Program-made: the position numbers and the translations under genes | Notes under the pieces: generated by a model | Told to the model about the DNA's origin: nothing | Seen by the model: the letters and a program-made list of their open reading frames with translations, nothing else | Database searches by the model: none | Part shown: positions 8,799-63,515 of the stretch, in pieces | Layout: every line of letters starts with the position of its first letter | Numbering within the stretch: the stretch's first letter is position 1 | DNA from: a virus | Virus record (IMG/VR): IMGVR_UViG_3300043425_000861 | Direction: 5' to 3' (one strand) | DNA: 64,000 nt

Positions 8799-11700
8799 TT
8801 ATTTTATTAATCGGAAATAAACAACATCCCCTTCAAATAATCCGAGTTCGTCCATTAATGCTTTAGACATTCCTATACCATATGGTATTCCTGCTGCTGG
8901 TCCTGTATTAACCGGACCAATAAATCTTCTTGTAGTGTAATCGTAACTATAACCTAATGTAACCTTTTTGTTGACTTTAGGGTCAGGATTAAAGAATTCA
9001 GTTTTTGGACTACCTTCTAAGATATTGTTAGGGGTTACTGTGTTGTCAAATAAGAATTTAGTTGAGTAGAATTTATCTTTATCTGAATTAGGACTAAGTT
9101 CTGACCACTTAACAACACTACTTGTTTTAGTATTTCCCGACATAAATTCATATCTACTCACAAATCCCATATCTATGTCGTTATTAATAGGATAGTTTTT
9201 ACCTCCCATTATTGTAACGTTAGCTCTTAACCACTCTTCATCGTTAAATCTAACTAATTGAACATATTTCTCATTTTTAAATCCGTTGTATGATATACCA
9301 TAAGGTGTTGACGCTGCATTCTCGATAATTTTCTCACCACTGATAGTTTTTGTACCTGGGTCATAAACATAAGTGTTACCCTTATTATCCTGTACTACCT
9401 TTTCGTTATTTGTTTTATTTGCAAGTTTTTGATTTTCATCCTTAACTTTTGCAACCGCTTTGGATACCATTTTATCAAACAACGCACGATAACTTGCCAT
9501 AAATGAATCTTTAGGGTCAGGTAATGACGTAATTGGTATTCTTGTTCCTTTAAATGTTGTTTGGATGTTATTGTTTGAAATACTATGGTTCACTTCCTGA
9601 ATCCAATAGGTTCCTCTAAACAATGGTATATTCTTAAGATAAAAATACATCGTTGGTTGTATCATAACATTACCCATCATAGTAACATCACAAGTATATG
9701 ATTGTGACCTGTAAATGTCAAATAATCCAATATCTACTTGTGCAGTACTTGAACCTGTTTCACTAGCACCTAATCTTTCCAACACCGCAAATGACTCTGA
9801 AGTGTTTTTAACCGATGATTGATTTAATTCAAGACCTTTAAAAATACTTTGATTTTGGTCACCGAAACTAACCTCAAACGCAACCGCTTTATTAGATTTA
9901 AAGAAATCTATAGTATTAAACACTTCAGGTGCTATCAACACGGGGTTGTTGTTTGGTTGTTGGATATTGAAACTATCATCCTTAAACATCATTTTTTTGT
10001 TTACTTCACTCATTTCCAAATACTTAGAGGTTGGTCCTGTGTATTGTAATATGATTTTAGGTGATGATTCTTGATAGTCGACTTCTAAGAATGTTCCGAA
10101 TATATTTTTAGCAACCGTTTTTGATGGTGTTATCTTTGATTTGTTATTATAGTTTGTTCCATAGAAATTAACGTAAGCCGGCATCGCTCTCATATCAAAT
10201 CCCGTTCTTGAGATAAGATTTGAAATTGTACCATATAGATTTTGTTTTTTAGAATTTCTTTGGTCACCAATTTCTATTAATTTTTTAATATCAATATAAA
10301 CCGAATCACCGATGTCTACATTTGCCTTATCTAAAAATAAAAACTCTTCCAATAAATTTCTTTGACCGATAGAATTACCCGCAATCCACTTATCGTTAAA
10401 TGATTTAAAGAAGTTGTATAATTCTAATTTAATTATATCGTCATTATAACCTCTGTCTATCTTTAATCTTTGTTCTACGTTATCCGCCTTTAGAGTACTG
10501 AATCTACTCGTTAATACTTTTAAGAATAACGCAAGTCTATTTGCTTGTCCCCCAACTTTAGAAAACGCATCACTATCTTTTAATATAATGTTATTTCTTA
10601 AATAGTTAACGAAAGTCGCTTTACTGATTCCATATCCCGCCTTTCTAAAACCTGCATAGATGTAAATTAGGAATCTAAATCTCTTAATATTTTCTTCGTT
10701 AAGTTCAATATTGTTATATCTGAAGAAATCTTCATAATAGTTATCCATATCTTCTCCAAGATATAGTTTTATATAATTCTGTGTTTCTGTATCGATTTGT
10801 CCTGAATCAAACGCGAGTCCTGTCGAGAATCTCTCTACGTTTGCTTGTGCAAAACCACCCAATACGTGTGCATTAATTTCTTTAGGGTTAGATAAACTTA
10901 ACTTAACCAAATTATCGTTACTCAATATATCATTGGTTATTTGATAAAGTTTTTCTCTTTGTCTCCAATACGCATTCATCATAAAATCATTCATACCGGG
11001 AGCATTGTCGATATTGTCTGTTGAATACTTTGGTATTGAAACTAATTCTTTAAGTATTTTTTTAAATGTGTTATACTTGAATTTATATTTTGACTGAGGT
11101 ACTTCTTCGTTTAATGTGTCCGATGCAAACTCAATAAACATATCTTCAAAGACATCTAATATTTCAGGTTTGAATGTTGCAATTAAATCAACAATTTTTC
11201 TATTGTTCGCTGAAATAGATGGTAACGAATTATTCTTTACCATATATTGACTTGGTGGGTTAAAAGTCTCTCCACTGTAAAGTGGTGATTGATTACCCAT
11301 ATAAATTTGGTCATAGTTTGACCAATAGGTTTTAAAATTATCTTGTTCGTTTCTACTAAATCCTGTTAGATTTGAATAGATATGTCCTGAACCTGGTAGT
11401 AATGTATATCTTTGGTCTTTTGAATCGTATTTTGAGTTATCAATCATAACACTCCAATTCCAAGCACCGTCACCACCAATTTTGTAAATTGGTTTTACAA
11501 CACCTTTATTAACCATTTCAGTATACATCGTATTACCCGTTGCTATGAATGGATTATAGAAAGTATAATCATTTACTATTTGATGAAAGATTGAATGGTA
11601 GTATGGATAAAAACCAAAGTCTTTCGGATTTACTCCTCTAATAACGTTAAAACTTGCGGTGTTTCCTGATGTACTTCCAGTGAAAGGTACCTCATATGTT

Positions 11701-62355: not shown

Positions 62356-63515
62356 ATTTTTTGTATTAAATCAAATAAAGAGTTTTCCTTATTAATCTTC
62401 TCAATAAACCTATCGTGACACTTTATTGACCACTTTTTACATAATTCATAGTTATAATCAAATCCCCACATAAACTCTCTTACAAATTCAACAAACATCT
62501 CAGGATTTCCTTTATGTTCCCTAAATTTTTCCATAAACGGATGTTCTTCAATATCCACCATTTTATGAATACAATCTAATGGGTAGGAATGTGTAGAAAT
62601 GAAAGGTATACCTGCAAGAATAAAACCAAGAGTTTTTTCAGTTAGATAGTGGAAAACCACCTCATAGTTTTTTCCTCCGTGACTCTCATCGAGTATGTGC
62701 ATTTTAGATTTGGGTAACCTTTTGAAAAACATATCCAAACCATTGTGTAAATTAACGATGTAATCCACGTTATCAAAATCGGTTTCCCCATTGATTTTAT
62801 TTACCTCTATATTTGGTATTAAATCGTTATTTAATTTATCCGATTGTGTAACTGTAATATCTTTAATTTCACTTAAACCTTCGGCAATAACTTTTCTGTG
62901 TTTCTTGGATGTCATTATGGAATACCCCAACTTATATTCGTGATTAAGTCTTTCAAAAATATATTTGAAATCATAGTACCACTTCAAATCATTATGACCG
63001 TTCCAATTGAAAATTGTATTAGTGAATGTATGATATACATTTGGGTATTTACTTGAAAATGAATCGTTTAGAAGAATATTATCAGTTATAATTTTATTTT
63101 TTGATAATCGATTTATATTCTCCTCGAATGATATCATATGCTCATTTGGTTCCTCATCAAACTTTGAAAATATCTTTTCCGTTTTAAAAATAAGGACCAA
63201 CCAGTTACTTTTATTTTCAATAATATCACATAATCTACCCATCACTGATGTGTCAACAAAACCATCAAACGCTCCACAATCATTAAAATCTGAATAGTTT
63301 TGGAAGTCTTGTCTTATTGAATAATAATCAATAAGATGTAAACCGTCCACATTATCGTTTATTGTTGGGTTGAATATAAGTTCAAATGTAACTCCATTGT
63401 AATTACATTTAACATTTGCAAGTTTACCTGATACATTAATTTCTTTATCAGTCGTATTATGACACAACTTATAGAATAATTGTTTCGAGTAATAATTGTG
63501 GACATATATTTTCAT
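62352..63515 (-). CDS. Putative glycosyltransferase-like protein (GT10-like TEK motif)
   Basis: ILDES...YLTEKT...I....PFI. Confidence 0.5.
   Translation of the reverse strand: MKIYVHNYYSKQLFYKLCHNTTDKEINVSGKLANVKCNYNGVTFELIFNPTINDNVDGLHLIDYYSIRQDFQNYSDFNDCGAFDGFVDTSVMGRLCDIIENKSNWLVLIFKTEKIFSKFDEEPNEHMISFEENINRLSKNKIITDNILLNDSFSSKYPNVYHTFTNTIFNWNGHNDLKWYYDFKYIFERLNHEYKLGYSIMTSKKHRKVIAEGLSEIKDITVTQSDKLNNDLIPNIEVNKINGETDFDNVDYIVNLHNGLDMFFKRLPKSKMHILDESHGGKNYEVVFHYLTEKTLGFILAGIPFISTHSYPLDCIHKMVDIEEHPFMEKFREHKGNPEMFVEFVREFMWGFDYNYELCKKWSIKCHDRFIEKINKENSLFDLIQKI

Follow-up and report, generated by a model that had tools for sequence, protein, structure and literature searches.

The stretch of DNA considered here, hereafter the window, comprises 64 kb of one strand of the IMG/VR record IMGVR_UViG_3300043425_000861. 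The element of interest is a four-residue motif, [ST]Gx[ST] (Ser or Thr, Gly, any residue, Ser or Thr), which recurs in a set of the late proteins encoded there and may be the acceptor tag of a phage-encoded glycosyltransferase. The window is a segment of an uncultured T4-like jumbo myovirus; it has a GC content of approximately 32% and no tRNA genes. Its replication and metabolism genes encode NrdA/B, a DnaB-like helicase, a 5'-3' exonuclease, a RecA/UvsX-like protein, gp32, PolB, and an SNF2 helicase, and there are further genes for a gp13-like neck protein, PhoH, dUTPase, and dCMP deaminase. The tail module consists of the genes for the sheath (23563-26403), the tube (22726-23214), and a baseplate-hub-like protein (21875-22624), then those for proteins of 630, 1606, 107, and 1950 amino acids (aa), an order that is the same in Microcystis phage Mel-JY01. 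Two relatives are collinear with the window: the 311-kb IMG/VR genome G004 (93% complete), over its positions 213-276 kb, and the complete 321-kb genome G008, which has terminal repeats and is more diverged than G004. By synteny with G004, the T4-like capsid, portal, terminase, and prohead protease genes are predicted to lie just beyond the window.

Motif counts are given here as observed versus the mean of 2000 composition-preserving shuffles per protein, and counts of a refined form, [ST]G[^P]T, are added where they bear on the case. A local null, in which residues are shuffled inside blocks of 15-100 residues, keeps the local richness in Ser, Thr, and Gly. Pooled across eight late proteins, the motif occurs 59 times versus 18-19 expected, whether the shuffles are global or in blocks (19.3 in blocks), and the other 41 open reading frames (ORFs) of the window hold 14 versus 12.2 in block shuffles. 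The genes of the motif-carrying proteins, like those of the tube and the LamG protein discussed below, lie on the minus strand.

The tail sheath (23563-26403, 946 aa) matches PHROG 23 (E = 8.5e-64) as well as Pfam PF04984 and PF17482, with its core domains at residues 660-936. It has both the core and the C-terminal domains of a contractile sheath, and the tube gene is nearby. It carries 10 motifs versus 2.95 (z = 4.3; refined, 7 versus 1.56), and all seven refined sites fall in a non-core insert (approximately residues 70-655), outside the core, much as had been proposed when the sheath motifs were said to lie mostly in the variable insert. The giant 1950-aa protein (8799-14651), at first called a hub, has no Pfam or PHROG match and is placed by synteny, downstream of the sheath, tube, and baseplate-hub-like genes, where Mel-JY01 has a 2255-aa protein. 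It holds 12 motifs versus 1.97 (z = 7.2; refined, 9 versus 0.88), and its orthologue in G004 has 9 versus 1.48.

A 693-aa protein (36063-38144) is modelled by AlphaFold2 as an all-beta tandem double beta-propeller (pLDDT 88.6). Foldseek likewise returns double propellers, its only close structural relatives being uncharacterised phage proteins, and this fold rules the protein out as a candidate major capsid protein. It carries 12 motifs versus 2.44 (z = 6.3), with 11 of the refined form. Its N-terminus (residues 1-47) is predicted to be disordered (pLDDT < 50) and is highly conserved, with approximately two dozen invariant residues and three motifs; it probably docks onto a partner.

Next come a 435-aa protein with no family match (44239-45546), an accessory protein absent from G004 and G008, with 8 motifs versus 1.09 (z = 6.9; refined, 7 versus 0.55), and a Ser/Thr/Gly-rich 425-aa protein (41161-42438) from the same accessory block, with 5 versus 2.25 (z = 1.9, p = 0.08; refined, 5 versus 1.06, p = 0.005). 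A 346-aa protein (42457-43497) has 4 versus 0.60 (p = 0.003) and larger, motif-rich homologues in relatives (L084, 627 aa, 12 versus 1.14; G008, 1309 aa, 18 versus 4.4). The 1606-aa protein (14961-19781), assigned to the tail module by its position, is weakly enriched (4 versus 2.1, p = 0.15; refined, 4 versus 0.98, p = 0.015), its 23 homologues together having 95 versus 58.6. Beyond the window, the capsid protein is mildly enriched in G004 (4 versus 0.53).

These recounts agree exactly with the by-eye counts of the preliminary description for the sheath and the 1950-, 693-, 435-, and 425-aa proteins, and its estimate of about 0-1 motif in each cytoplasmic enzyme also holds (PolB 1, SNF2 helicase 1, NrdB 0). 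Its term "virion proteins" applies with certainty to the sheath, the only proven virion component; the 1950- and 1606-aa proteins are assigned to the tail module by gene position, and the others are presumptive.

Two late proteins act as internal negatives. The 983-aa LamG/ConA-like protein (38206-41157; Laminin_G_3, E = 1.8e-28) is rich in Ser, Thr, and Gly and yet has the motif at expectation (4 versus 4.93). The 162-aa tail tube (22726-23214; PHROG 4542, E = 4.8e-24), which lies inside the sheath in the virion, has no motif, and its 64 homologues, which are related sequences, have 0 versus 9.1. Beside the sheath gene, the 69 homologues of a 424-aa protein (26686-27960, minus strand) contain 3 motifs versus 38, these sequences again being related. 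The LamG protein also has three long (Thr-Pro)n linkers (residues 246-272, 507-522, and 639-666); linkers of this type are classic O-glycosylation targets in bacteria.

Because the motif had been picked by eye, approximately 41,000 three-position patterns in six shapes, with Ser and Thr merged, were scanned without bias. [ST]G.[ST] was the top non-repeat pattern (P = 4.5e-14), and those ranking above it came from the (Thr-Pro)n linkers of one protein. The codons used in the motif are mixed (ACA, TCA, AGT, ACG, and ACC; GGT and GGA); therefore, the signal is at the level of protein, not DNA, and a DNA word or a by-product of GATC/CATG avoidance is ruled out as its cause. Shared domains or paralogy were likewise rejected, as the enriched proteins have neither mutual BLAST similarity nor internal repeats (E <= 0.1). 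The SBBP propeller repeat, with its "YVTGyT" signature, was considered as a source and has no hidden Markov model support, and no Pfam repeat family matches. Instances in the window are scattered through the proteins and have no collagen-like context.

The true motif is hydrophobic-[ST]-G-x(not P)-T. The original definition, [ST]Gx[TS], is thus right for Thr at position 4 but not for Ser, which occurs there at approximately 1x background; these and the following dependencies refer to the six enriched proteins. The refined [ST]G[^P]T occurs in them 41 times versus 5.8, and 16 versus 9.5 in the other 43 ORFs of the window. The probability of Thr at +3 is 0.44 after [ST]G and 0.08, the background value, after any other residue and G. 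When Gly is swapped for Ala, Asn, Asp, Ser, or Pro in the pattern, no excess is seen, and the reversed order and other spacings reach 1-2x. Across families, the real motif is present at 5.5x and 6.9x and its scrambled forms at 0.5-2.7x. Pro and Arg do not occur at x in any of 494 distinct instances from two protein families, and Glu, Lys, and Gly are rare there; Ile, Leu, Val, and Tyr are preferred at -1 (approximately 2x), and the flanks beyond it are nearly uninformative. Given such flanks, and no similarity among the enriched proteins, one is dealing with a short linear motif rather than a domain signature.

The excess is specific to the clade of the window and is not a general feature of myovirus tails. 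Structural proteins of T4 have 21 motifs versus 17.5 (none in gp18; refined, 9 versus 8.3), and those of Mel-JY01 have 19 versus 15.1 (1 in the sheath; refined, 3 versus 6.1). Flavobacterium phage immuto, with 56 versus 37, lacks an excess at the level of the clade. The median is 11 versus 2.8 in 78 sheath relatives and 11 versus 2.4 in 120 homologues of the 693-aa propeller, and a second clade of sheaths (approximately 1070 aa) totals 414 versus 89, with the neighbouring genes at 104 versus 99. A whole-genome scan of G004 ranks highest a block at 186-210 kb beside the tail module, the sheath, the propeller, and the orthologue of the 1950-aa protein; in G008, the sheath is among the five top proteins. 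The remaining proteins have 69 versus 113 in G008 and 108 versus 73.5 in G004, an inconsistency that gives no footing to a general depletion in non-target proteins. Collagen-like (Gly-Thr-Ser)n proteins match trivially (29 matches in a 504-aa protein of contig L108; 18 in G004 297127-298758). Two supposedly motif-free sheaths proved otherwise: L188 has a true 1073-aa sheath with five motifs, and L117 has a true 937-aa sheath with motifs at several aligned columns. Megaphages LR756508 and LR756501, taken as an added test of glycosyltransferase and motif together, gave counts too small to tell.

How the sites evolve says most about what they are. Alignment of 63 distinct sheaths gives 53 motif columns, approximately five of them widely conserved. 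The hypervariable stretch (residues 100-320 of the window's sheath) holds 7.0 motifs (range 3-10) versus 1.8, an excess present in all 63 lineages, and sheath pairs that are 30-50% identical there have approximately 25% of motif positions in common. Full-length representatives at 42-49% identity carry 8, 8, 8, 5, 5, 5, 6, 4, and 7 motifs at non-aligning positions; among further representatives, one has 2 and another, P0161, has 0. Sheaths with different inserts (1284 and 1112 aa) again have 11. In these sheaths (1284 aa in G005/G006, contigs L111 and L112; 1112 aa in G007, contig L113), the ends match the sheath of the window and a larger, non-alignable insert lies between them; the insert is a swappable module. 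In the propeller family, approximately ten motif columns are conserved and the others are lineage-specific.

Loss is equally informative. P0006 (L081:1146-3197), a propeller homologue of unchanged composition whose nearest relative is 53% identical, retains none of the sites; even three that occur in all of the other 120 sequences are gone. Every fixed position is hit, with Gly to Thr and Gly to Glu among the changes; P0006 is a singleton known only from a 3.7-kb contig. In P0008, five sites are missing, and changes of Gly to Glu or Ala again contribute. As P0006 retains the protein despite these changes, Gly is not structurally required at those sites. Taken together, the kept number, the free positions, the dispensable Gly, and the all-or-none loss are as expected of a tag read by something else, and such behaviour is not expected of residues that each hold a turn in place. 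In this respect, [ST]GxT behaves as a tag would if selection acted on it directly.

The preliminary description counted three to four glycosyltransferases in the window; one is firm, one marginal, one weak, and one unsupported. The firm one (49079-50323, plus strand, as are the next three genes) is a GT-B (GT4-like) glycosyltransferase (PHROG 7162, E = 3.8e-42; AlphaFold2 pLDDT 90.9), for which Foldseek finds GlgM, MshA, PglA, PimA, BshA, and SdgB. Its orthologues are 52-65% identical in G004, G008-G012, L085, and L108, and distant homologues occur in Phapecoctavirus and Campylobacter phages; its product is a candidate for the motif reader or for a glycan extender. The gene at 53150-54208 encodes a probable GT-B glycosyltransferase from weak signals (PDB 8xsg, E = 4.1e-5; Glyco_trans_1_4, E = 0.17; BshA-type, E = 0.04), 8xsg being a bacterial glucosyltransferase (PMC12159676). 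It is 70% identical in G004 and 41% in G008 and lies directly upstream of the marginal GT-A (GT2-like) gene (54198-54992, 264 aa), which scores 24.9 bits against a cut-off of 23.3 for Pfam Glycos_transf_2, the sole Pfam family at E <= 0.01, and is 65% identical in G004 and 50% in G008. The end of the latter abuts a sigma-70-like gene (54992-55693; Sigma70_r2, E = 4e-4, below the Pfam cut-off; 80% identical in G004, 57% in G008). The pair thus does run into a sigma-like gene, as had been noted, and the sigma-like factor may act late. The three glycosyltransferase-like genes all belong to the core of both clades (G004 and G008) and keep their synteny there.

The supposed GT10-like gene (62352-63515, minus strand) drew no support: this accessory 387-aa ORF, situated between dCMP deaminase and a small conserved gene, has no match in Pfam, PHROGs, NCBIfam, or PDB and is missing from G004 and G008. 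A second accessory region, also missing from both, is the block at 41161-45546 (minus strand), with the 425-aa protein, a PHROG 16701 peptidase (43512-44216), and the 435-aa protein; in G004, one 1434-aa protein is the counterpart of 42457-43497 and part of 38206-41157. A contig search with the peptidase returned five loci only, and viral contigs searched with the propeller protein alone gave no match. In one relative (L108:12326-18113), there come after the propeller gene a collagen-like (Gly-Thr-Ser)n protein and a cluster with PF11397 (the polypeptide GlcNAc-transferase family), DUF3431, and HtrL_YibB, and there are GT2, methyltransferase, and cytidylyltransferase genes upstream. This is a possible second protein-glycosylation cassette, absent from the window.

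One might next ask whether the glycosyltransferases act on DNA. Avoidance of GATC and CATG, suspected from the outset, is total in the window (0 versus 206 and 0 versus 166 expected); GCGC (3 versus 21.5) and CTAG (35 versus 98) are also low. G004 and G008, each of more than 300 kb, have 0 GATC but 687 and 742 CATG, respectively, so that CATG avoidance is specific to the sub-lineage of this phage. Since DNA with blanket modification would scarcely need site avoidance, the total avoidance favours a non-DNA target; it may still be compatible with modification of a subset of bases. T4-type DNA glucosylation, which takes a base hydroxymethylase as well as DNA glucosyltransferases and makes DNA resistant without site avoidance, does not fit: a scan of the window ORFs turned up neither a hydroxymethylase nor a thymidylate-synthase-like gene. 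In the phage of the motif-free sheath P0161, GATC and CATG are ordinary (24 and 25 in 23 kb), and a thymidylate-synthase-family gene lies near the sheath; this lineage could protect its DNA differently.

Our preferred reading, to which we give a probability of roughly 45%, is that [ST]GxT is the acceptor tag for a phage-encoded glycosyltransferase. The tag, hydrophobic-[Ser/Thr]-Gly-x-Thr, would sit on outward-facing parts of the sheath and of several large late proteins, where a cytoplasmic glycosyltransferase encoded by the phage would put a sugar on its Thr (or Ser/Thr). One of the products of 49079, 53150, and 54198 would start the glycan and the others would extend it, and the outcome would be a particle with a sugar coat. 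Three steps in this reading are inferred: an enzyme as the reader of the motif, one of these glycosyltransferases as that enzyme, and a glycan as its product. The glycan coat of the preliminary description is partly supported, by the tag-like behaviour of the motif in unrelated late proteins and by the core glycosyltransferase-like genes, and it is challenged by P0161.

Several observations weigh against this reading. The P0161 sheath has the same architecture and is 40% identical, with 0 motifs versus 0.64. Its phage (a 59-kb contig, L226/L228, ENA k141_62159; GC content 24.7%) has 3 versus 2.4 over 19 genes, although the three glycosyltransferase-like genes, dUTPase, PhoH, and the sigma gene are all retained there in unchanged order (29-32% identity). 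Possession of the trio thus does not suffice for the motif, and the two are not tightly linked: either the specificity of the trio has drifted in that lineage, or the trio does something else and the motif has another reader, or there is no reader. All ten motif-rich genomes that were checked have the 49079 gene, and T4, Mel-JY01, and immuto lack it, a contrast confounded by shared ancestry. Which proteins are enriched depends on the clade: in G008, neither the capsid protein nor the orthologue of the 1950-aa protein is. Most GT4 and GT2 enzymes have sugars or lipids as acceptors, and no nucleotide-sugar synthesis gene was seen in the window. Finally, a structural role would also accommodate the hydrophobic residue at -1 and those propeller sites that lie within beta-strands or at their ends.

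Such a role is the first alternative: beta-rich surface domains would favour [ST]-G-x-T at strand ends and hairpin turns, where Ser/Thr side chains would provide capping, Gly would occupy the turn, and the beta-branched Thr would open the next strand, and nothing would read the motif. The enriched proteins are indeed beta-rich, positions +4 and +5, like -1, are often taken by residues that suit strands, and several sites in the propeller model are at hairpin turns or strand ends. The approximately ten propeller sites conserved in position in most of the 120 homologues point the same way, as does the retention of the glycosyltransferases by the motif-free phage. When the sites are mapped on that model, however, their contexts differ: some are in two-residue hairpin turns or longer loops, whereas others are mid-strand, at strand ends, or in the disordered N-terminus. 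P0006 and P0008 have Glu, Thr, or Ala where Gly stood and yet keep the protein, and P0006 loses all its sites together. In T4 and Mel-JY01, the homologous sheath and tail proteins fold in the absence of the motif, Ser/Thr/Gly-rich beta proteins such as the LamG protein and a 2915-aa protein in L085 (3 versus 15.8) are not enriched, and no Pfam repeat family accounts for it. We regard this explanation as somewhat unlikely.

The motif might also be read in trans by something other than the three glycosyltransferases, be it a phage or host enzyme (phosphorylation, methylation, or a sugar transferase encoded elsewhere), an assembly factor, or a host surface component; we consider this quite unlikely. 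The evidence for selection on the motif holds whoever reads it, the persistence of the trio in the P0161 phage is readily accommodated, and L108 has PF11397, DUF3431, HtrL, and a cytidylyltransferase beside its propeller gene. Host-dependent methylation of a tail protein has been reported for a mycobacteriophage (PMC13445384). Against this, the window shows no recognisable enzyme of protein modification, be it a kinase, a methyltransferase, or another kind, and a binding partner would be expected to require fixed positions. The peptidase (43512-44216) was rejected as a reader, being absent from G004 and G008, both of which carry the motif.

Chance, composition, or low complexity (Ser/Thr/Gly-rich stretches or collagen-like repeats) is a highly improbable source, for although collagen-like proteins match trivially and the motif was chosen after the sequence had been viewed, the excess survives block shuffles down to 15 residues, leads the unbiased scan, comes from dispersed instances, and replicates in independent homologue sets, so that for the six proteins of the window an artefact is refuted.

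Returning to the tag for a phage glycosyltransferase, comparison with known systems is instructive. No description of the [ST]GxT motif turned up in the papers searched. Particle glycosylation has been described for a few mycobacteriophages, in which the glycans reportedly sit at the C-termini of capsid and tail-tube subunits (work from Freeman and colleagues, 2023, in Cell Host Microbe), and we know of no defined sequon for it. As in mycobacteriophages, the phage encodes its own glycosyltransferase or glycosyltransferases (49079 firmly, 54198 narrowly) and a glycan shield is proposed; unlike there, the candidate sites are dispersed in sheath inserts and large proteins, and the tube has no motifs. 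Virion glycosylation by phage-encoded glycosyltransferases is established in mycobacteriophages according to PMC12619734, a paper that also describes the "moraphages," a lineage of large phages from aquatic habitats. Their core genes include four glycosyltransferase orthogroups, for which the paper leaves the target open, and their predicted hosts are Bacteroidota. Like these, the phage of the window is an aquatic jumbo phage; T4-like structural genes, PolB, a sigma factor, dUTPase, and several core glycosyltransferases are common to both, and the phage may belong to the moraphage lineage or a related one. That paper raises possible virion glycosylation and, in its glycosyltransferase passages, names no acceptor motif.

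The nearest chemistry established by experiment is that of SgtA of Clostridioides difficile, a cytoplasmic GT-A enzyme that puts O-GlcNAc on Thr of the Gly-Pro-Thr collagen-like triplets of BclA3 (PMC7157674), to which the BclA exosporium glycoproteins are related. The window likewise has a GT-A-like gene, and its motif contains G-x-T with a strong preference for Thr; unlike the BclA3 triplets, it excludes Pro at x (0 of 494), needs a preceding Ser or Thr, and is not collagen-like. SgtA also accepts Ser and has TPR repeats, in a 358-aa glycosyltransferase-plus-TPR layout for which 54198-54992, at 264 aa, is too short. The GT-B/GT4 fold of the 49079 product is shared with SdgB (PDB 7vfl among the Foldseek matches), although the match is at the level of the fold only (12-13% identity), and the closer matches, GlgM, MshA, PglA, and BshA, act on sugars or small molecules. 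SdgA and SdgB of Staphylococcus aureus are GT4 protein O-GlcNAc transferases that act on Ser in a short repeated motif.

A defined three-residue sequon, D-[ST]-[AILVMT], directs general O-glycosylation of exported proteins in Bacteroidota, a phylum that may include the host. It is at expectation in the six enriched proteins (5, 7, 3, 1, 1, and 1 versus 5.5, 5.1, 4.9, 1.7, 1.1, and 2.0), as is N-x(not P)-[ST] (20, 11, 18, 8, 3, and 7 versus 22.7, 9.6, 13.6, 9.9, 4.0, and 6.9). In its evolution, the motif resembles sequons of animal viruses: on HIV Env and influenza HA, N-x-S/T sequons are kept in number in variable surface regions while their positions shift, with Pro excluded at x, and in the clade of the window motif number is kept, positions turn over, and Pro is barred. 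Unlike here, those N-linked sequons are read by the host oligosaccharyltransferase in the endoplasmic reticulum.

Tentatively, then, this might be the first defined acceptor sequon for cytoplasmic O-glycosylation by a phage of tail and outer virion proteins, widespread in a clade of aquatic jumbo phages and evolving like the glycan shields of animal viruses, a proposal we hold to be possible though doubtful. If the proposal is true, the tag would point to the proteins that are modified and to the loops concerned, virion modification could be read off the sequences of thousands of uncultured phages, and the matter would be open to experiment with short peptides and the three candidate enzymes. 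Phage-surface engineering could draw on it, as could work on the ways in which phages evade or adhere to hosts, grazers, and aquatic particles. Even without the sugar, the sheath presents a four-residue motif whose density stays constant while its positions turn over fully, a clear instance of a short linear motif under selection in a bacterial virus.

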